A stretch of DNA of 10,342 bases from the UHGV virus genome UHGV-0155330; one strand, 5' to 3'. The position numbers and the translations under genes were made by a program. This document shows, one piece after another, positions 1 to 10,342 of this stretch. Below the pieces are notes generated by a model. That model had not been told where the DNA came from, did not search any database, and was given only the letters and a program-made list of their open reading frames with translations. The first letter of the stretch is position 1. Each line of letters opens with the position of its first letter. This stretch comes from a virus.

Positions 1-26
1 GCTTTCTATTATGTGAAGGGTAAACA

Positions 27-110
27 ATGAAAGAGCTATTCGACTGGCTGGAAGTATTAACATACTGCGCAAGTTTTGTGGCTTGCGTATATATCATCAA
101 TAAATATTGA
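27..110 (+). CDS. Hypothetical 27-aa hydrophobic peptide (MKELFDWLEVLTYCASFVACVYIINKY), possible small membrane peptide
   Basis: ATG at 27 preceded by AAGGG (16-20) at SD-like spacing; stop TGA 108-110 lies 10 nt before the terS start. Hydrophobic core could form one short transmembrane helix. Not in the supplied ORF track (too short). No homology can be checked. Confidence 0.25.
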   Translation: MKELFDWLEVLTYCASFVACVYIINKY

Positions 111-120
111 GAGGTGAAAT

Positions 121-606
121 ATGGCCCGCACTAAAAAGGCAAAGGCTGACGATAAAAAGCCAGCAGCCAAAAAGACGGGCCGTCCACATGGCTATTCAGA
201 AGAAAAGGCATTGGAGATCTGCGAGCTTGTGTCGGACGGCGAAAGCATTAACAAAATTTCGAAGATGCCTGGTATGCCTGCACGTTCAACAATCCTCAAG
301 TGGTTCCGTGATGTGCCAGAGTTTTCGGACATGTATATGCGCGCGAAGGAGATCGGTTTTGAGGTATTGGCTGATGAGATTATCGATCTTGCTGATGCGC
401 CAGAGAACATCAAAAAGGAAGAATTGAACAGACATCATTTGATGATTGAAACGCGTAAATGGTTACTGGCAAAACTGCAACCGCGTAAATATGGTGAACG
501 CGTCACGCAGGAGATCGTCGGCAACAGGGAAGAAGCGCCAGTCCAGGTTGAAGTCACGAAAGAAGAGATCGCCCGCATCGTCCAGGAAGTAGAAGACGAG
601 GTGTGA
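121..606 (+). CDS. terS: Terminase small subunit (DNA-recognition subunit with N-terminal HTH)
   Basis: 161-aa ORF immediately upstream of, and stop-overlapping, the large terminase gene. Basic N-terminus (MARTKKAKADDKKPAAKK), HTH-like segment (EEKALEICELVSDGESINKISKMPGMPARSTILKWF) and acidic C-terminus are typical of TerS. SD GAGGTGA at 111-117. Confidence 0.75.
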   Translation: MARTKKAKADDKKPAAKKTGRPHGYSEEKALEICELVSDGESINKISKMPGMPARSTILKWFRDVPEFSDMYMRAKEIGFEVLADEIIDLADAPENIKKEELNRHHLMIETRKWLLAKLQPRKYGERVTQEIVGNREEAPVQVEVTKEEIARIVQEVEDEV

Positions 607-608
607 TT

Positions 609-2087
609 ATGTTGACAATCAGAGAACGAGTAATTCAGTCCAAATGTGAAAACGATGGCCTGTTTTTCAATCGCTACTTTTACAAGCAAGCGAATGGAAC
701 GAAGATGTTAATCTCAGGCCATCATTTAGCTATCCGCGACGCACTGCAACGCGTTATCAAAGGTGAGATAACCCGACTCATCATCAACATCCCCCCAGGG
801 TACGGCAAAACCATGATCGCCACTATCAATATGATGGCGCGGTCCCTCGCAATAAATCCCCGCACACGATTCCTTCACGTTTCCTATTCCAACAACCTGG
901 CACTACTCAATTCCTCGACCGTAAGAAACATGATCTGCACGCCTGAGTATCAGGCAATGTGGCCCATGAAGATCCGCAACGATGCAAACTCAAAATCGAT
1001 GTGGTGGACCGAATACGGTGGCGGCGTGTATGCAACGTCATCGCTGGGCCAGGTAACTGGGTTCCGTGCCGGGTATATGGAACCGGGATTTAACGGCGCG
1101 TTAATCATAGACGACCCATTAAAACCCGCTGACGCTTACTCCGATGTTGTGAGAAAGCAGGTAAATACCAACTATAACGACACGCTTGCTTCACGTCTGG
1201 CAGTGCAAACGACGCCTGTTATCGTCATCATGCAGCGCATCCACTACGATGATTTGTCAGGCTACCTGCTACGCGGTGGAAGCGGTGAAAAGTGGTATCA
1301 CCTGAACCTGCCAGTGAAGATCGATAACGGTCTGGACTACTGGGATCTGTACCCTGAAAACGAGTTCGCTATCCCTATCGCTCACAACCTGCCAGATGGC
1401 TGGCTATGGCCTAAAAAGCACAATGACGCCCATGAAGCTGGACTGAAAGCACACAGGCGGTCATTTGAGGCCCAGTACATGCAGCGCCCGCGTAAATTCG
1501 ACGAAGAAGGCGCATTGTGGACTGAAGCAATGATAACCGCAGCGCACCGGATGCAGATAACGCAGGACAAGATCCGCACGGTAATAGCCATCGACCCGGC
1601 GACAACCTCATCGGAAGAATCGGACGAAACGGGGATCATGGCGTGTTCCGCCTATGGTGGCGGCAAGAATGCTCAGTATTCTGTTGATGGTGACTATTCA
1701 GGCCGCATGTCGCCTAACGACTGGGCGCACGCAGCAATGAATGCCTATGACATCCATGAGGCTGACGCGATGGTTATCGAAACCAACCAGGGCGGTGACA
1801 TGGCAGAGGCCACACTACGCAATGCCGGATTCAAAGGCCGCATTGTTAAGGTGCACGCAAGCAAAGGTAAATTCGCCCGTGCCGAACCAATATCTGCACT
1901 GTATGCGCAAGGAAGGGTGGCACACACTGGTGAACTGTACACGCTGGAAAATCAAATGATGGAATACGTGCCAGCTACAGCCAAAAAATCCCCTGACCGT
2001 ATGGACGCAATGGTCTGGGGTATTACCGAATTAAGCCAGCCACAGGCGATGGGCCTCATGTTACCGAAGCGCCTGCGCGGATTTTAA
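609..2087 (+). CDS. terL: Terminase large subunit (ATPase + nuclease)
   Basis: Walker A-like P-loop PPGYGKTM (about nt 790-816), Walker B-like hydrophobic stretch ending in DD (ALIIDDP), and a C-terminal RNase H-like nuclease region (IAIDPATT ... MVIETNQGGD). ATG 609 follows GAGGTG (598-603) and overlaps the terS stop (TGA 604-606). The ORF track starts at GTG 603; ATG 609 is preferred. Confidence 0.9.
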   Translation: MLTIRERVIQSKCENDGLFFNRYFYKQANGTKMLISGHHLAIRDALQRVIKGEITRLIINIPPGYGKTMIATINMMARSLAINPRTRFLHVSYSNNLALLNSSTVRNMICTPEYQAMWPMKIRNDANSKSMWWTEYGGGVYATSSLGQVTGFRAGYMEPGFNGALIIDDPLKPADAYSDVVRKQVNTNYNDTLASRLAVQTTPVIVIMQRIHYDDLSGYLLRGGSGEKWYHLNLPVKIDNGLDYWDLYPENEFAIPIAHNLPDGWLWPKKHNDAHEAGLKAHRRSFEAQYMQRPRKFDEEGALWTEAMITAAHRMQITQDKIRTVIAIDPATTSSEESDETGIMACSAYGGGKNAQYSVDGDYSGRMSPNDWAHAAMNAYDIHEADAMVIETNQGGDMAEATLRNAGFKGRIVKVHASKGKFARAEPISALYAQGRVAHTGELYTLENQMMEYVPATAKKSPDRMDAMVWGITELSQPQAMGLMLPKRLRGF

Positions 2088-2165
2088 AATCTGCCTCACA
2101 ATCCCCCACAAGTTTTTCTATTTTTCGCGTAGCAACGCGTAAACATGTATTCAGGAGTAAACATT

Positions 2166-3536
2166 ATGCCATCCAATTTAGAATTGGCGGTTAATGCTGC
2201 CTTGTCTCAACGCCAGGCGGCCTACGCCCGCTATGCAGCCGCCAACCCATTCACTATGGGGATAGATGCCAAACGCGATGCTGCGTGGAGTGAATACGGA
2301 TTCAAAGAAGAGATCACGTATGACGATCTATACAAACTGTACAGGCGCGGTGGTATCGCTCATGGTGCTGTAGAAAAGATTATCACAACTTGCTGGCGCA
2401 CCAGGCCAACGATGATTGAAGGAACCGAAGACGAGAAAGCCGAAACGGAAACACCCTGGGAAAGAGAAATCAAGAAACAATTTGATAACAGATTTTGGCG
2501 TGTCATTGCCGAATGCGACCGCCGCCGCCTCATCGGTCGTTATGCTGGCCTGTTAATTCATGTCAGAGATAACCAGCCGTGGGATCAGCCAGTAACAAAA
2601 GGCGTAGGCATTGCCAAATTTACCCCCGTATGGGCTGGTGCTCTTACACCGAAGGACTTCGAAGAAAACCCGGATAAAGAAAACTATGGCCTGCCTACAT
2701 GGTGGGAATACAAGGAGCGCATTAACAATAAGACCATAGCAAGAAAGATACATCCAGATCGCATATTTATCTTCGGTGATTATTCTGATGATGCCATTGC
2801 TTTCCTTGAGCCGTCCTATAACGCATTCGTTTCGCTGGAGAAAGTGGAAGGCGGCAGCGGTGAATCATTCCTGAAAAACGCAGCACGTCAACTTGCTATC
2901 TCGTTCGATAAAGAAATTGATTTCCGTTCTCTGGCTGCAACATACGGATGCGACGTCACAGAGCTGCGCGAAAAATTCAACGAGGCAGCGGCTGAAATGA
3001 ATAAGGGTAACGACGTGATGATGGCATTACAGGGGGCAACAGTAAGCCCGCTAGTGACTGCCGTATCTGACCCGTCAGCAACCTATGACGTAAACCTGCA
3101 AACTGCCGCCGCTGGTATTGATATTCCGACCCGCATCCTGGTTGGTAACCAGCAGGGCGAACGCGCATCAACCGAAGATCTCCGCTACTTCAACAGCCGC
3201 TGTATGACCCGCCGCGAGGAAATCGGAGGCGAGCTTGAGGAACTATTCCGCAAGATGGCAGATCTCCGCCTTATCAGTATGCCAATTGATGTATCAGTTA
3301 TATGGGACGACCTGAACGCCATGACTAAAGCCGAACTACTGGAAGCGGCATACAAAATGGCACAAATCAATCAGGCTTGTCTGGCTACTGGTGAAGAAAT
3401 ATTTAGCGGTGACGAGATCCGCGAGGCTGCCGGATACGATGGCCCTGCCAGTGTAGTAGAAACGGAAGAGGAAAACGATGATGAAGGTGAAGAAGATAAT
3501 CAGGCGAATACCTCCAGCCGCTATAATGCCATCTAA
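2166..3536 (+). CDS. Portal protein
   Basis: About 457-aa ORF between terL and the Mu F-like head protein, the canonical portal position. Highly acidic C-terminal tail (ETEEENDDEGEEDNQ). ATG 2166 preceded by AGGAG (2153-2157) at 8-nt spacing; the in-frame upstream ATG 2145 lacks an SD. Confidence 0.75.
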   Translation: MPSNLELAVNAALSQRQAAYARYAAANPFTMGIDAKRDAAWSEYGFKEEITYDDLYKLYRRGGIAHGAVEKIITTCWRTRPTMIEGTEDEKAETETPWEREIKKQFDNRFWRVIAECDRRRLIGRYAGLLIHVRDNQPWDQPVTKGVGIAKFTPVWAGALTPKDFEENPDKENYGLPTWWEYKERINNKTIARKIHPDRIFIFGDYSDDAIAFLEPSYNAFVSLEKVEGGSGESFLKNAARQLAISFDKEIDFRSLAATYGCDVTELREKFNEAAAEMNKGNDVMMALQGATVSPLVTAVSDPSATYDVNLQTAAAGIDIPTRILVGNQQGERASTEDLRYFNSRCMTRREEIGGELEELFRKMADLRLISMPIDVSVIWDDLNAMTKAELLEAAYKMAQINQACLATGEEIFSGDEIREAAGYDGPASVVETEEENDDEGEEDNQANTSSRYNAI

Positions 3537-4422
3537 CACCGAAGACCCGACCATGACAGGTAAGTTACGGTCGGGAGCTATCAAGCGTTTTAAAGCCTGC
3601 CTGAAGAAAGTCGCGGATCCGTATATTGCCATACTGGACAGAATACAATATACCCTGGCTGTTAATAAGAAGTACACCTTCCAGATCTACATTGACGAAT
3701 TGCATGATTTGCTGGAAGACGCCAGCGACATGATTGATGAAATATTCGAGTTAACAGACCCTGAAAACTTCTGGTTCTGGCAGAATTACGTGAAGGTGGC
3801 ATATCAGCGCGGCACTTCACAGGAATATGCCAACCTCTCTAACCAGTCAGTCACATATTCCAGAGCTTATCCAGAAGTGTCGGCGGTATTAACCAGTCAG
3901 ACATATCGCACACGCCTTGCCCTGGTCCGTACCCGTGTATTTGAAGAGATGCGCGGGCTTACAGCACAGATCAAGAAGGATATGGCTCGCCGATTAACTG
4001 AAGGCATGGCCCGTGGCTTAAACCCACTGGAAATAGCACGCACATTGCAGCAGGAAACGCAATTGCCGCTATACAGGTGTAAACGTATTGCCCGTACTGA
4101 AATATGCACAGCGTTACGCACAGCTCGTATGGATGAGGCAGAGGCCGCATCGGATGAGCTTAACTTGCGCACTATGCAGATGCACATTTCTGCACTGTCA
4201 CCGACTACCAGGTTATCACACGCACAGCGGCACGGGAAAACGTACACCATAGAAGAGCAGCGCGAATGGTGGAGCAGATCCCCAAATTCAATTAACTGCA
4301 AATGTAGCACTATTACCGTGATGGTCGATGAATCTGGTAACATATTAAACAAACGAATATTAGATCGGGCGCAAGAAAACTATAAGGTTGCGCACGCTAA
4401 ATATGGCGAAGATTGGGAGTAA
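3526..4422 (+). CDS. Phage Mu F-like / SPP1 gp7-like minor head (head morphogenesis) protein
   Basis: Motifs characteristic of the Mu F family: RIARTEICTALRTAR, HISALSPTTR, AQRHGKTY, NCKCS. Start is ambiguous: in-frame ATGs at 3478, 3526 and 3553. I chose 3526, which overlaps the portal stop (3534-3536). Confidence 0.75.
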   Translation: MPSNTEDPTMTGKLRSGAIKRFKACLKKVADPYIAILDRIQYTLAVNKKYTFQIYIDELHDLLEDASDMIDEIFELTDPENFWFWQNYVKVAYQRGTSQEYANLSNQSVTYSRAYPEVSAVLTSQTYRTRLALVRTRVFEEMRGLTAQIKKDMARRLTEGMARGLNPLEIARTLQQETQLPLYRCKRIARTEICTALRTARMDEAEAASDELNLRTMQMHISALSPTTRLSHAQRHGKTYTIEEQREWWSRSPNSINCKCSTITVMVDESGNILNKRILDRAQENYKVAHAKYGEDWE

Positions 4423-4427
4423 AAACC

Positions 4428-5717
4428 GTGAATAAAGAACTGATTCAGGTTAATACCAAATTAACCGCTAATACCATCCGCCGGGAAACATATAACGGTC
4501 GCGAACACATTGTGGTTCCGTCGTATACGTTGCCCTTTAATATCGTTATGAATCGGGAATATTACCCGGAAGCTGAAATCATTGCTAATTATCAATCTTT
4601 GGAAGGTACGCTTGCGCCGCTGGGTCATCCTACCGTAGACGGTGAATTTGTTTCCGCATTTAGCCCGGAAGGTCTGAATATTGGCTTTTGCGGAGCGTGG
4701 AACAGAAATGTTGAATTACGTGGCAACCGTGTTTATGTGGAAAAATGGGTGGATGTTGAAACCGCCAGCCATTCAGAACAAGGTCGCGAATTATTAAGCC
4801 GACTCGAAGCACTGGAAAAAGGTGAAAGCAAAGATCCGATCTGGTCATCTGTTGCCGTATATCGTCAGCGTATGCCAGCTACTGAAGAAATGAAAGCACA
4901 GGGTGCTGACAGCGTGGTTAAAATCATGTCAATCGACCATGACGCCATCCTACTTCATGAACCGCCAGCCGCATCGCCAGAACAGGGTGTTGGCCTGATG
5001 GTTAACACTGACCAGGCGAAGCCGTTAATGGCGGTGGCAATGAAAGAAAACAGCTATCGCACGCTTGAGAAACAATTAACTGACGCGGCGCGGGAATTAT
5101 TCCCTGATGCCGATTATGTGTATGTGGTGGACTTCACTGATAAAGAAGTGACGATCGCCACTAATACTGAAAGTGCTCAAGTTTGCACGTATGAAAAACA
5201 GGCTGATAAAATAATTCTCAATAATGGCGAGCTTGCAACCAATGAGGAAAGTAAATCGTGGTTCGCTCAGTTCGCTGAACACTTATCTAATCTTTTCTCC
5301 CTGAATGAAAAAATTAAGGCCAATAAATCGGAGGGTGAACCCATGCCTTTGACCAAAGAAGAACGCGCCGAACTGGTAAAAGAAATTAACGAAGGTTTAG
5401 CCGCTAATATCGCCAGTGCAGTAGCTGAAGCACTTAAACCAGTACAGGCAAGCGTTGAAGAATTACAGACCAACCAAAAAGAATTGCAGACCAACCAGAA
5501 AGCGATTAAAGAAGAGATCGCAGCAAACGCAGATAAAGAAGTAGCAGAAAAACGCGCCGCAGTAGCAAAAGTACACGGCGAAATTGTTGCTAACGCATTA
5601 AGTGGTGAAGCGTTAGAAGCAATGTTTAAATCCCTGGGCAAAGCAGCGCCGATGGCAACCAACGCAGCAAGCGAAGGTAAAAAAGGCGAAGTACCAGACT
5701 TTAACACTTATTTCTAA
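4428..5717 (+). CDS. Head maturation protease / scaffolding-type protein with C-terminal coiled-coil (putative)
   Basis: Large ORF between the Mu F-like gene and the capsid genes. The C-terminal third is Ala/Glu/Lys-rich with heptad-like repeats (ELQTNQKELQTNQKAIKEEI), typical of scaffold domains. Preferred start is GTG 4428, preceded by GGGAG (4415-4419); the ORF track's TTG 4413 overlaps the upstream stop. Whether the N-terminal part is a protease cannot be decided by eye. Confidence 0.55.
   Translation: MNKELIQVNTKLTANTIRRETYNGREHIVVPSYTLPFNIVMNREYYPEAEIIANYQSLEGTLAPLGHPTVDGEFVSAFSPEGLNIGFCGAWNRNVELRGNRVYVEKWVDVETASHSEQGRELLSRLEALEKGESKDPIWSSVAVYRQRMPATEEMKAQGADSVVKIMSIDHDAILLHEPPAASPEQGVGLMVNTDQAKPLMAVAMKENSYRTLEKQLTDAARELFPDADYVYVVDFTDKEVTIATNTESAQVCTYEKQADKIILNNGELATNEESKSWFAQFAEHLSNLFSLNEKIKANKSEGEPMPLTKEERAELVKEINEGLAANIASAVAEALKPVQASVEELQTNQKELQTNQKAIKEEIAANADKEVAEKRAAVAKVHGEIVANALSGEALEAMFKSLGKAAPMATNAASEGKKGEVPDFNTYF
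5460..5501 (+). repeat. Imperfect 21-bp tandem duplication (GAATTACAGACCAACCAAAAA / GAATTGCAGACCAACCAGAAA) inside the scaffold coiled-coil region
   Basis: Two adjacent 21-nt units differing at 2 positions, in frame, encoding ELQTNQK twice. Confidence 0.9.
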
Positions 5718-5733
5718 TTAAAAGGGGATCACA

Positions 5734-6156
5734 ATGTTTCGTTTTCGTCGTGTAAATATTGATGGTAAATCCATCACAGAAACCCGCCTCGCTGGTGCTG
5801 AATTAAAACCTGGTGAACTGGTTAAACTTGAAGGCGGTAAATTCGTTAAAGCGGCCCCTGCTGATGTTGGCAAGGGACAGTTGTATATCGTTAACCCGGC
5901 ATTCCATGAAGGTAAAACCATTGCTGATGCAATCGCTGCAAATGCAACCGTTGTAGCCGATTATGTGGAACAGGGGCGTGAGTTTGCTCTCCGTGTTCCT
6001 AAGGCCACTTATGCCAAAGGCGCAGCCATTTCCCTTGCGGCAGATGGCGCTAAATTGTCTTCTGCTGTGGAAGGCGGCTCAGCACCAATCATTGCATTCT
6101 GCCAGGAAGATGTGACCCTGACCGCAGAAGACTTCATCCGAGTTCGCGTCGCTTAA
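5734..6156 (+). CDS. Small capsid-associated protein, possibly a head decoration protein (or small head subunit precursor)
   Basis: 140-aa Gly/Ala-rich ORF directly upstream of the major capsid gene. Strong SD AAAGGGGA before ATG 5734. Codon usage is biased like the capsid gene, suggesting high expression. The function is inferred from position and composition only. Confidence 0.4.
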   Translation: MFRFRRVNIDGKSITETRLAGAELKPGELVKLEGGKFVKAAPADVGKGQLYIVNPAFHEGKTIADAIAANATVVADYVEQGREFALRVPKATYAKGAAISLAADGAKLSSAVEGGSAPIIAFCQEDVTLTAEDFIRVRVA

Positions 6157-6173
6157 TTTAAAAGGGGAAAAAC

Positions 6174-7226
6174 ATGTACTTTACCAAAGAAAACCTTGCT
6201 ACCAACGCCCGTATGCAGGGCCATTGGAACGAACTGTGGGCGCAACGCAATATCTTCAACGCTCAACATGACGCCATGATTGCAGCGAACAAAGCAAACA
6301 TGACTTCTGAAATGTTGGCCTGCAACGCTGTTGGTGGCTTCGCAAAAGAGTTCTGGAAAGAAATCGATAACCAGATCATCGAACTGAACACCGAGGAAAT
6401 CGGTATTGAAATCGTCAACGACCTGATGGGTGTTCAAACCGTACTGCCTATCGGTAAAACGCTGAAAATGTACAGCGTATCCGGTGACATCAACGATGAA
6501 GTCGTAATGTCTATGGATGGCCAGGCACCGCACGGCTTTGATCACACCGAATACGGCAGCGATGGCGACCCGATCCCGATGTTCGCGGCTGGTTATGGTG
6601 TCAACTGGCGTCTTGCTCAGGGCCTGAATACTGTAGGCATTGACCTTGCCCTTGACAGCCAGCGCCTGAAACTGAAAAAATTCAACAAAGCACGCGTTAA
6701 CTTCTATCTGAACGGTAACGAAAACATCAAGGTTGATGGTCATAAAGCTATGGGTATTAAAAACCACAAAAACACCCAGCAACTGACCCTGACAACTGAC
6801 CTGACCACTGCGCAATTTGACGCACTGATCGACTTCTTCACCATTGGTGAATTCGGCGTTCTGGCCCGCAATAACTTCGTTGCTAAATATGATGTTATGT
6901 GGGTATCACCTGAAATCATGGCTAACCTGGCACGTCCGCACATCGTTAACGGTGCTGTGGTTGGTAGCGTGCTGCAAACGGTTATGCCGTTCGCCCCGGT
7001 AGGTGAAATCCGCCAGACCTTTGCACTGAAAGGAAATGAAATTATTGCTTATCAGCGCCGCCGTGATGTCATCACCCCGCTGATCGGTATGACTACTGGC
7101 GTTGTACCTGTACCGCGCTTTATGCCGACTGATAACTATAACTTCAAAATCATGTCTGCCGAAGGTTTACAAATCACCTGCGACATGTTAGGCCGTTCCG
7201 GTGTCGTTTACGGCAAAAATTCTTAA
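6174..7226 (+). CDS. Major capsid protein
   Basis: 350-aa ORF in the canonical position after the scaffold/decoration genes. Strongly optimised codon usage, strong SD AAAGGGGA before ATG 6174, and a strong intrinsic terminator immediately downstream. The size fits an HK97-fold capsid protein without a long delta domain. Confidence 0.75.
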   Translation: MYFTKENLATNARMQGHWNELWAQRNIFNAQHDAMIAANKANMTSEMLACNAVGGFAKEFWKEIDNQIIELNTEEIGIEIVNDLMGVQTVLPIGKTLKMYSVSGDINDEVVMSMDGQAPHGFDHTEYGSDGDPIPMFAAGYGVNWRLAQGLNTVGIDLALDSQRLKLKKFNKARVNFYLNGNENIKVDGHKAMGIKNHKNTQQLTLTTDLTTAQFDALIDFFTIGEFGVLARNNFVAKYDVMWVSPEIMANLARPHIVNGAVVGSVLQTVMPFAPVGEIRQTFALKGNEIIAYQRRRDVITPLIGMTTGVVPVPRFMPTDNYNFKIMSAEGLQITCDMLGRSGVVYGKNS

Positions 7227-7245
7227 TTAGAACGCTTCCTGTAAC

Positions 7246-7275
7246 TCCCCGGCGCGATGCCGGGGATTTTTTTTT
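7246..7275 (+). terminator. Rho-independent terminator downstream of the major capsid gene
   Basis: Perfect 8-bp GC-rich stem TCCCCGGC (7246-7253) / GCCGGGGA (7259-7266), 5-nt loop GCGAT, followed by 9 consecutive T (7267-7275). Confidence 0.85.
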
Positions 7276-7293
7276 GTATGTGGAGCAAACAAA

Positions 7294-7680
7294 ATGGTCA
7301 CTACAGAACAGGCGCGGGAATATCTTGAAAGCCAGGGTATTGACCTGCCAGACGTTATCTTATCATTGCTGGTGGAGCAGGCAAACAGCGTTAACGAATG
7401 CCTTGATGCCAACTATCCGGCCTCCACTGCAACATTAATTCAACTTTACCTGATTGGCCTGTTGGGGCTCACCCAGGCTAACAAATACGTTTCCTCGCAT
7501 ACTGGTACGAACGGTGCAAGCCAGTCATACCGCTATGTCGATTTCAATAAAAAATGGAAGGCAGCACACTCGTTGCTTTACTCCCTTGATAAGAATCACT
7601 GTACAGCCGAATTAATTCCAGCAGATCCAGAAAACACCGCGCACGCTGGCTTGTGGATAGGTAAAAGCGGGAGGATGTAA
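7294..7680 (+). CDS. Putative head-tail adaptor / connector protein
   Basis: 128-aa ORF right after the capsid terminator. SD TGGAG precedes ATG 7294. Position is typical for head completion/adaptor proteins. No diagnostic motif recognised. Confidence 0.4.
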   Translation: MVTTEQAREYLESQGIDLPDVILSLLVEQANSVNECLDANYPASTATLIQLYLIGLLGLTQANKYVSSHTGTNGASQSYRYVDFNKKWKAAHSLLYSLDKNHCTAELIPADPENTAHAGLWIGKSGRM

Positions 7681-7682
7681 CA

Positions 7683-7868
7683 ATGTGGAATGACCTTACA
7701 TTACCGGATCCGTTATTGCCAAAACTGTTTACCCGCGTATGGGTGAAGACTGACACCGGGCGACAGGTTGCGGCATATCTCAATGACGCTGGCGAATGGG
7801 TGATTCTTTGCCCACGCGTGGCGAAAACCCATCCGAAAATCGTCAAATGGAGCTATGGCTATGAGTAA
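7683..7868 (+). CDS. Hypothetical small protein (61 aa) in the head-tail joining cluster
   Basis: Strong SD GGGAGGA (7669-7675) before ATG 7683. Start lies 2 nt after the upstream stop and the ORF overlaps the downstream gene start, suggesting a translationally coupled real gene. Confidence 0.45.
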   Translation: MWNDLTLPDPLLPKLFTRVWVKTDTGRQVAAYLNDAGEWVILCPRVAKTHPKIVKWSYGYE

Positions 7869-8229
7869 GATCGCGAGATTCAGTTACAAGGCATTAGCCA
7901 CCATTTACCCCGTAACGCGTGACGACTGGACAAACTCAGACGTATACGGAACGCCATATCTTATTGATTGTGCATGGGAACGCACTGACGGAACCGCAAC
8001 AGACGCAAACGGGAATGAGGTTAGCAACACGATAACCGTATATACCGAACTGCTTCACAAGATGCAGCCAGTACAGCGCCCGGAAAAAGGGTGGATGATT
8101 GCCACTGGGGACACTACTGCTATTGCTGACCCGCTGGCGGCTGGGGCCAACTTTATAACCGGGATCGTTGAATGGGACATGAGTATATTTAACGACACGC
8201 CGGATTATAAGATCGTTACAGGGGGTTAA
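7861..8229 (+). CDS. Putative head closure / head-tail joining protein
   Basis: About 122-aa ORF. ATG 7861 lies 8 nt after GGAG (7849-7852); the ORF track's ATG 7855 is 6 nt upstream in frame. Size and position fit small head-closure proteins. Assignment is positional. Confidence 0.35.
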   Translation: MSKIARFSYKALATIYPVTRDDWTNSDVYGTPYLIDCAWERTDGTATDANGNEVSNTITVYTELLHKMQPVQRPEKGWMIATGDTTAIADPLAAGANFITGIVEWDMSIFNDTPDYKIVTGG

Positions 8230-8231
8230 TT

Positions 8232-8672
8232 ATGCCTATTAAGGGCGTCAAACGTGTCAGGGAGCGATTAAAGCAGGAGCTAAAGGAAATCACAGACAAG
8301 AAAACTTATGAGGTGTTATGGCGAGTAGGGATGCTGGCTGGTGGCTTCGCGGCGAACATGACCCCAGTTGACACGGGTTTTTTAATTAACAGTCAATTTC
8401 AGTATATAGGTAACACGGCGGAGGGTATGCAATTACGGCTGGGATATACGGCCCGTTACGCTGAATGGGTGCATGACATGCCGGGTAAATTAAAAGGCCA
8501 GCCGCGCAAACATTTCGGCAAAACCAGAGAGGGCGTCGAATTTGGCGGCGGCACTGGTAAGGGTAATTATTGGGACCCAAACGCGGAGCCGGAATTTTTG
8601 CGTAATGCATTTGAAGATCCAAACAACGCTGACGATATTTATAAAGAGATTGTAGAAGGTTACAAAACATGA
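8232..8672 (+). CDS. HK97 gp10-like neck / tail-completion protein (putative)
   Basis: 146 aa. N-terminal segment with PVDTGFLINS resembles the DTG(x)LxxS signature I associate with the HK97 gp10 family. GGGGG precedes ATG 8232. Recognition is from memory of the family pattern, not a search. Confidence 0.45.
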   Translation: MPIKGVKRVRERLKQELKEITDKKTYEVLWRVGMLAGGFAANMTPVDTGFLINSQFQYIGNTAEGMQLRLGYTARYAEWVHDMPGKLKGQPRKHFGKTREGVEFGGGTGKGNYWDPNAEPEFLRNAFEDPNNADDIYKEIVEGYKT

Positions 8673-9055
8673 AACGCAGCGAAGTATATGACGAAATAAG
8701 GGATTGGATTAAGTCCCACGGGTACGACGAAGGTTATATTTTGCAGGCCCGTTTCTGGAATGAGCGATCCAATTCTAATAACGACAGGTACATTGTCATA
8801 CAGCAAAACGGCGGTGCGGCTGGTGAAGAAGCAGTAACCCGTGACTATTTCCGCATCCTGGTTATTTCAGCGCGTAACGATGCAAATATTAGTGAAGTGG
8901 AAGATCTCGCCGACGCAATACGCCAAAGTATGATAACCGAGTATAAAACTGATAAAATTACACACATGAAACCAATTGGCGCTATTCCTGCAATGCAGAC
9001 AAGAGAAGGGCGCTTTATTTTCACCGTAGCTTTCCAAACCATCATATCTAGATAA
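8669..9055 (+). CDS. Putative tail terminator / tail completion protein
   Basis: 128-aa ORF whose start overlaps the upstream stop (ATGA at 8669-8672). Lies immediately upstream of the major tail protein gene, the usual position of the tail terminator. Confidence 0.35.
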   Translation: MKRSEVYDEIRDWIKSHGYDEGYILQARFWNERSNSNNDRYIVIQQNGGAAGEEAVTRDYFRILVISARNDANISEVEDLADAIRQSMITEYKTDKITHMKPIGAIPAMQTREGRFIFTVAFQTIISR

Positions 9056-9068
9056 GAGGTAAATAAAC

Positions 9069-9545
9069 ATGTCTCAGACTTGTGATAAAGGTTCGTTCTT
9101 AGGCCGCGACGTTGCCGTATTTTACGCTATCGCCTGCCCTAATGCGAAACCTGAAGAAAGCGCTTATAAAGCGTTAGGCATGATGCGTGGCAAATCTCTT
9201 TCCGTAGAATGGGAAACCGCAGACGCCACCGCTGACAAATCAGCAGACTACACCAAAGAATCAATGGTCACTTACAAATCTGTTTCTTTCTCAGGTGACG
9301 GCGTATCCCGTACTGAAGAAATTCATAATCAGAAGGCACTTAAACGCCACGTTATTAACCCTGGCGAAACAACTGGTGCGCAGCCTTACGTCTGGCTGAA
9401 ACTTGTTTCACCGCTCGATGTAACCGAAGGTCCGTTCCTTTGCACCTCCTTTAAAGAAGAGGATCCTCACGACGATGTATCAACCTGGTCCATTGAGTGC
9501 GAAAGCGCTGGCAAGGTCACAGTTGGCGACGTTCCTGTATTGTAA
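9069..9545 (+). CDS. Major tail (tube) protein
   Basis: 158-aa ORF with a strong SD AAGAGGT (9054-9060) and optimised codons, followed by an intrinsic terminator. Size, composition and position are typical of siphophage major tail proteins. Confidence 0.6.
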   Translation: MSQTCDKGSFLGRDVAVFYAIACPNAKPEESAYKALGMMRGKSLSVEWETADATADKSADYTKESMVTYKSVSFSGDGVSRTEEIHNQKALKRHVINPGETTGAQPYVWLKLVSPLDVTEGPFLCTSFKEEDPHDDVSTWSIECESAGKVTVGDVPVL

Positions 9546-9563
9546 CAGCAAATATTAACATCG

Positions 9564-9587
9564 GGGCCATTTGGCCCCTTTATTTTT
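9564..9587 (+). terminator. Rho-independent terminator / attenuator downstream of the major tail gene
   Basis: Stem GGGGCC (9564-9569) / GGCCCC (9574-9579), loop ATTT, followed by TTTATTTTT. The next gene starts 13 nt later, so partial read-through is implied. Confidence 0.7.
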
Positions 9588-9599
9588 AGGGTGACAACT

Positions 9600-10272
9600 A
9601 TGATTCACGTTCGAACAGGACAGTTTGCGGTTGTAGTTGATGGCAGGCGTTACGAATTTAATCCCTGCTTTGCTGCAATGGCTAAGATCGGCAGTGACAG
9701 GGAACTGGTCGAATATTTCGCAACGGTTCACGGTGGCAGATACCCACAACGTTTGCCAATGGATACAGACCTCCGCAATCGCATTCTGGCGCGTTGTTAT
9801 GGTGAACTTGTGCAAACATCCATCCACGTACTGAAATGTTGCTCAGAGTGCGAAATAGGCCCGTTATTGGGCGAATGCAGCTTTACTCCTTCGGGTAAGT
9901 TAAGACTGAAACCTGGATTGATGCCAACCTGCGACGTTATCACGCTGGCGCAACACTGTATGTATCACGGTTTAATTGGTGACGGTCCAGAAGAAGACAC
10001 GGGCACAACCCAGGATGGCGAGTACAAGCCAACATTCGACATCCTTGAGTATGTTTACTCCGCCGTTGCTCACCTGGGATTGTCTGAATCTGAAGCATGG
10101 GGCATGACAATGACCGGGTATAGGGCCGCTGTACGCGCTAAAACGCCACCAGACGAAAGAAACGAGAAAGGCAAACCAAACGTTCATATAAATAAACGTG
10201 ATTATGATGAGCAAATGGGAGCGGCTAAAAGGGTGCTGGAATTGATGAAAAAACGCGAGCAAGAAAAAGCCC
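9600..10272 (+). CDS. 3'-truncated ORF in the tail assembly chaperone position; cysteine-rich hypothetical protein
   Basis: ATG 9600 (ORF track starts at in-frame GTG 9591) preceded by AGGGTGA. Native sequence ends at 10272 where the adapter begins, so the track's stop at 10293-10295 and final residues IGRAHV are artefactual. Eight Cys including CCSEC...C. Chaperone assignment is by position only. Confidence 0.4.
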
Positions 10273-10336
10273 AGATCGGAAGAGCACACGTCTGAACTCC
10301 AGTCACCTTGTAATCTCGTATGCCGTCTTCTGCTTG
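10273..10336 (+). other. Illumina TruSeq indexed adapter (index CTTGTA) read-through; sequencing artefact, followed by poly-A (10337-10342)
   Basis: Exact match to AGATCGGAAGAGCACACGTCTGAACTCCAGTCAC + CTTGTA + ATCTCGTATGCCGTCTTCTGCTTG. Confidence 0.97.
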
Positions 10337-10342
10337 AAAAAA

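Follow-up and report, generated by a model that had tools for sequence, protein, structure and literature searches.

The sequence studied here is a stretch of 10,342 nucleotides from UHGV virus genome UHGV-0155330, which we refer to as the window and which ends in 70 nucleotides that read like an Illumina library adapter followed by a run of A. This raises the question of whether the 3' end of the window, and with it the end of the gene that runs into it, is phage DNA, and whether position 10272, immediately before this tail, has any bearing on the termini of the phage genome. An earlier note on this DNA, made from the letters alone, had proposed that 10273-10336 are library-derived rather than phage sequence, that the adapter encodes the stop codon and the final residues of the last open reading frame (ORF) and that the junction might, with some hedging, bear on the genome termini of a pac-type phage. 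By an exact protein look-up followed by sequence comparison, we found the window to be identical to the whole of contig ena:ERZ773516:NODE_2140_length_10342_cov_5.549830, whose source is a metagenome assembly. The adapter is located at the extreme 3' tip of NODE_2140, 6 nt from its end, and points outward. The name of this contig is in the SPAdes format, in which the value of ~5.5 is the k-mer coverage.

We evaluated the identity of the tail by exact string search with the reference TruSeq indexed adapter, which we take to be GATCGGAAGAGCACACGTCTGAACTCCAGTCAC-CTTGTA-ATCTCGTATGCCGTCTTCTGCTTG, trying each of the classic TruSeq indexes 1-12. Window positions 10274-10336 (+ strand) were an exact copy of the 63-nt adapter with index 12, and this index (CTTGTA) was the sole match, as the other 11 indexes gave none. 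Every coordinate that the earlier note had assigned, namely a base-for-base TruSeq match at 10273-10336, the index at 10307-10312 and then A6, was correct. The end of the window thus reads, from 5' to 3', ...GAAAAAGCCC, A, GATCGGAAGAGCACACGTCTGAACTCCAGTCAC, CTTGTA, ATCTCGTATGCCGTCTTCTGCTTG and AAAAAA (Table 1), and the number of exact 64-mers expected by chance in a window of such size is ~6e-35. Elsewhere in the window, left end included, neither strand contained a further 12-mer from the indexed, universal or Nextera adapters, and the left end of the contig was native from base 1. The terminal 88 nt folded no better than shuffled sequences (z = 0.18), and Rfam and tRNA scans over the window returned no matches.

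Table 1. Positions in the window of the features at, upstream and downstream of the junction between phage DNA and adapter.
Feature	Position	Strand	Remark
Small terminase gene, Sf6-type	121-606		E = 3e-36
Terminase genes together	121-2087
Native part of the DUF6246 gene, between the tail tube and tape measure genes	9600-10272	+	224 full codons and the first base of codon 225
Hairpin remnant (AAAAAGCCC)	10264-10272	.	In relatives AAAAA-GCCCGG-N6-CCGGGC between convergent genes
Single A upstream of the adapter	10273	+	G in all relatives fetched; first base of the usual AGATCGGAAGAGC trimming string
Constant 33-nt segment GATCGGAAGAGCACACGTCTGAACTCCAGTCAC, read-1 read-through sequence	10274-10306	+	Exact match
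Spurious TGA stop of the chimeric ORF, within the adapter	10293-10295	+	ORF listing, translation
Sample index CTTGTA, TruSeq index 12	10307-10312	+	Exact match, index 12 only
24-nt post-index adapter segment ATCTCGTATGCCGTCTTCTGCTTG, ending in the P7 flow-cell sequence	10313-10336	+	Exact match
A6 run, terminal in the window	10337-10342	+	Presumably base calls beyond the end of the library molecule

The native 10272 bases comprise the packaging, head and proximal tail module of a temperate coliphage of the mEp021 group (mEpimmI), with genes for an Sf6-type small terminase (E = 3e-36), a large terminase, a portal, a Mu-F-like protein and a tail tube, and with the DUF6246 gene as the last. They were 86-92% identical to mEp044, mEp010, mEp554, mEp515, mEp021, mEp013 and MagusPhagus, in alignments that ran from window position 13 or 16 to 10272; two of these seven phage alignments reached only ~10162, and none passed 10272. 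Homologues of the last 1.5 kb of the window were present in 37 of 5426 complete E. coli genomes, all of them chromosomal, and these alignments stopped at 10271-10275. The best match of the phage strain in the searched collections was 93% identical, and the native sequence after 10272 is extrapolated from relatives. At the other end of the window, just before the small terminase gene, there is a short ORF at 27-110 (MKELFDWLEVLTYCASFVACVYIINKY), which is conserved in mEp044 as an annotated CDS of 156 nt; the 26 bases upstream of it (1-26) diverge from mEp044 and match some E. coli prophages from base 1. We also observed that the portal gene (end 3536) and the Mu-F-like head morphogenesis gene (start 3478) overlap by 59 nt (3478-3536) in different frames, and that this overlap is likewise annotated in mEp044.

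Comparison of individual bases at the junction showed where the phage sequence is lost. After AAAAAGCCC, the window continues with AGATCGG, mEp021 and E. coli GN05505 continue with GGGGTTAGCCGGGC, and mEp044 and E. coli N921 continue with GGAATTAACCGGGC, so that GCCC is followed by GG(GG/AA)TTA(G/A)CCGGGC in the relatives and by AGATCGG in the window. As the relatives' alignments all stop at 10271-10275, this base-level comparison places the end of the native sequence at 10272. The 61 nt spanning the junction gave no matches in exact scans of IMG/VR and of the GTDB species genomes.

The native DNA of the contig stops 4 nt into the 5' arm of a hairpin (GCCCGG-N6-CCGGGC) that folds at -15 to -16 kcal/mol in the relatives, and at whose site terminators are annotated in mEp021 and mEp044. 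From its sequence, this hairpin looks like a bidirectional terminator common to the DUF6246 gene and a convergent small gene. In the relatives (L001 5271-5288; L006 11756-11796), the DUF6246 stop codon sits in the loop of this G+C-rich hairpin, with A5 upstream, and a T-rich run is present downstream of the hairpin in mEp044 and N921. The convergent gene between DUF6246 and the tape measure gene is 417 nt long in mEp021 and GN05505 (L001 5323-5739, L004 3021-3437), and the same slot holds a gene of 303 nt in mEp044 and N921 (L003 2995-3297, L006 11794-12096); it is a variable, moron-like small slot inside the tail operon, located just past the contig end. A terminator-like match on the - strand (10273-10256) was dismissed, being a weak match to the consensus that takes in the A-tail base.

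The ORF that crosses the junction matched Pfam family DUF6246 (PF19759) with E = 5.5e-55 and 186.5 bits (cut-off 27) over profile positions 1-184 of 185, and its siblings in a cluster built at 90% identity carry the name DUF6246 family protein. The gene call on the source contig spans 9600-10295 and treats the chimera as a complete protein of 231 aa, and the translation ends in ...EQEKAQIGRAHV before the stop. The ORF aligned with its relatives as far as ...EQEKA. Twelve further full-length proteins in the 90% cluster (89-96% identical), which are all its other full-length members, end in ...EQEKAR (225 aa) or ...EQEKARS/N (226 aa), the phage and prophage relatives that were fetched end in ...EKARG or ...EKARN followed by the stop, and among the full-length members of the cluster only the window's protein has the QIGRAHV tail. 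The exact chimeric protein is a member of this 25-member cluster in a public protein collection. Codon 225 (CAG, Q, 10272-10274) straddles the junction, with the native C in first position, the A-tail base in second and the first base of the adapter in third; the adapter supplies codons 226-231 (IGRAHV) as well as the TGA stop. The proposal that the stop and the final residues are adapter-encoded was therefore confirmed, with the refinement that seven residues (QIGRAHV) rather than six (IGRAHV) are non-native, because the Q codon straddles the junction. The accompanying claim that the gene is truncated at about 10272 was right as to the position of the cut but implied too large a loss: judging from the ends of the siblings, the gene probably lacks only 1-2 codons and its stop, about 5-8 nt, and gains seven false residues. 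Start calls for this gene disagree, in that the first in-frame start is a GTG at 9591 and the ATG at 9600 is used by the source gene caller and the RefSeq relatives; in the mEp021 record (L001 4572) the DUF6246 start lies 30 nt further upstream.

We compared the terminal 70 nt with the GenBank phage collection, in which all matches were remnants of adapter in unrelated records, most of them at the record ends. More than 20 unrelated GenBank phage records contained the constant segment of the adapter; they belong to phages that infect Salmonella, Bacillus, Klebsiella, Enterococcus, Caulobacter, Pseudomonas, Staphylococcus, Paenibacillus, Mycobacterium and other hosts, and MS2 is among them. In the literature, this constant segment is quoted by 296 papers in which contamination is also mentioned. 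As a control, we scanned IMG/VR for the 34-nt constant part of the adapter and found that at least 120 contigs carry a match, with 123 copies among the matches listed. Among these listed matches, the copy started no more than 80 nt from the end to which it pointed in 93 of 123 cases and no more than 300 nt from it in 121 of 123 (median 58 nt). Full-length copies among the matches listed numbered 27, of which 24 had poly-A (an A run 1 to 16 long) directly after the adapter, two had one C and then an A run, and in one the contig ended at the adapter. On this geometry and these poly-A counts among the matches listed, contig tips at which an outward-pointing adapter runs into poly-A are a common assembly signature that does not depend on the organism.

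Not every adapter fragment in the public records lay at an end. Internal fragments were observed in PP582185.1 (17845-17916), MN106245.1 (64527-64591), PV611058.1 (295321-295355), KY555145.1 (150479-150544) and OU343167.1 (104833-104894), which suggests chimeric joins or false coding sequence in such records. Some of these fragments lie under annotated features, as a 'hypothetical protein' in vB_Efs26_KEN12 and in Klebsiella phage EI and as 'Sir2' in the jumbo phage WPEC3.

We are nearly certain that the last 70 bases of the window are not phage DNA and instead represent untrimmed TruSeq adapter read-through plus poly-A, an artefact of sequencing and assembly. The earlier note's view that this sequence is library-derived is upheld by the exact synthetic adapter, by the loss of the relatives' homology after 10272 and by the tail matching only adapter remnants. 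In TruSeq library chemistry, fragments receive a non-templated A to which the adapter is ligated, and on four-colour Illumina instruments cycles without template are usually called as A. We propose that DNA of a temperate coliphage of the mEp021 group, or of its E. coli prophage, gave a library fragment with an end at 10272, and that this fragment was sheared, end-repaired, A-tailed and then ligated to the indexed adapter, in which case 10273 would be the A-tail base. If read 1 was longer than the insert, it would have run through this A and the 63-nt adapter into template-free cycles called as A, which would account for the terminal A6. With adapter trimming absent or incomplete, adapter k-mers would have entered the assembly graph, and, with true coverage exhausted on a contig of ~5.5x k-mer coverage, the adapter branch would have had no competitor and could have been kept as the contig end. 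The gene caller then read the DUF6246 gene across the junction, giving the 231-aa chimera with QIGRAHV and the adapter TGA. It is also conceivable, as a speculation, that the region downstream, which is variable among the relatives (different convergent genes), added to the break at this point.

A join made by the assembler, through a de Bruijn k-mer misjoin, was rejected as the origin of the junction, since phage and adapter share no sequence there; the only shared word seen was a 7-mer ~60 nt downstream in mEp021. As no sequence is common to both at the junction, the join must have been present inside at least one read. It could also be argued that the 64 nt are genuine phage sequence, acquired or convergent, and that the C-terminus of the ORF is real, given that the gene caller accepted the ORF and that the protein is present in a public collection, and nothing else speaks in favor of this. 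However, the match to a synthetic oligonucleotide is base for base and contains a valid sample index, at a chance expectation of 6e-35; the 64 nt are absent from all relatives; contigs of unrelated viruses carry the identical string at their tips; and the run of poly-A after the adapter is typical of read-through. We regard genuine phage origin as effectively refuted, with a probability that is close to nil.

With read-through as by far the best account of the tail, 10272 could still have significance if the adapter, itself artefactual, had been ligated to a preferred physical end of the phage DNA, such as a cut made in headful packaging or a point in the terminator hairpin at which breaks are frequent. 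Adapter ligation needs a free DNA end, adapters can in principle mark true ends (as at both ends of the Andhra record, discussed below), the Sf6-type small terminase is consistent with headful packaging, and the junction falls within the G+C-rich arm of a hairpin. Yet any sheared fragment yields the same junction, and at 5.5x k-mer coverage one read is enough to do so. The pac site of well-studied headful phages, P22 and Sf6 among them, is within the small terminase gene or close to it, and subsequent cuts are not made precisely. Here, the terminase genes lie ~10 kb upstream of the site considered, which falls in the final codons of a tail-module gene and maps ~37-38 kb inside the 53-55 kb records of the relatives, and inside prophages. 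The 7 phage genomes and 37 prophages are contiguous across it, no relative's record ends there, and the window has the adapter on one contig end only, its left end being native from base 1. The contig comes, moreover, from a metagenome assembly, and phages of this group are known to be temperate and to occur as prophages. In the mEpimmI genome paper (PMC11893012), data on the termini of this group were not found, and packaging was mentioned once, in generic terms.

We therefore consider it very improbable that 10272 is a preferred end of the phage DNA, and we give equally little weight to the notion that this position, 4 bases into the terminator hairpin after DUF6246, is a recurrent break or packaging end that was recorded by accident. 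The hedged idea that the junction bears on the genome termini of a pac-type phage survives in the trivial sense that 10272 is by definition the end of a library fragment, and the Sf6-type small terminase fits the description 'pac-type', but a phage terminus is unsupported at a site 10 kb from the small terminase gene, across which relatives are contiguous and for which the left contig end has no adapter counterpart. Nothing points to 10272 as a terminus of the phage genome.

The adapter tail, which the earlier note correctly recognised as an artefact, is thus not a real feature of the phage, and finding it is of value for data hygiene only, with no biological message on the phage. The contig needs to be cut back to 1-10272, with the DUF6246 gene labelled 3'-partial. 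A public protein collection already contains the 231-aa chimera with its false QIGRAHV C-terminus, and many public phage records and viral contigs retain this adapter, in some cases within annotated genes or repeat features. Adapter tails of this kind can give rise to C-termini and terminal repeats that are false, and can make unrelated genomes look similar.

The native part of the window has the same gene order as the mEp021/mEpimmI group (PMC11893012), and its last gene is the DUF6246 homologue, which in mEp021 is gene mEp021_62. In that group, however, the DUF6246 genes are complete and the sequence continues to the convergent small gene and the tape measure gene, whereas the window stops 4 nt into the hairpin. 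The tail, in turn, does not differ in any respect from read-through of the TruSeq index 12 adapter (AD012), with which it agrees over all 63 nt, in the A-tail base, in the poly-A and in its location at an outward-facing tip. The closest counterpart in a public record is Salmonella phage TS13 (MK249308.1, bases 1-69), in which the index-12 adapter and AAA occur at the record end with a 100% match to window positions 10271-10339. Unlike the source of the window, TS13 is an unrelated chi-like phage (Chivirus) whose genome is declared complete and circular, and its adapter consequently sits at the circularisation point rather than at a contig tip. Staphylococcus phage Andhra (KY442063.1 / NC_047813.1) also has the TruSeq adapter on its record ends, where it has been carried into the annotation: in KY442063.1 (18300-18546 and 1-250), the annotated terminal repeat_region (14-168, 18380-18534) includes ~42 nt of adapter, so that the true inverted terminal repeat is shorter than annotated. 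The Andhra adapter has index 5 (ACAGTG), faces outward at both ends of a small linear genome and follows the same terminal sequence ...CCTTAATATTT directly at each of them, as would be expected of an adapter ligated to true ends, and it probably marks real genome ends. The window, by contrast, has its adapter at one end only, in the middle of an operon.
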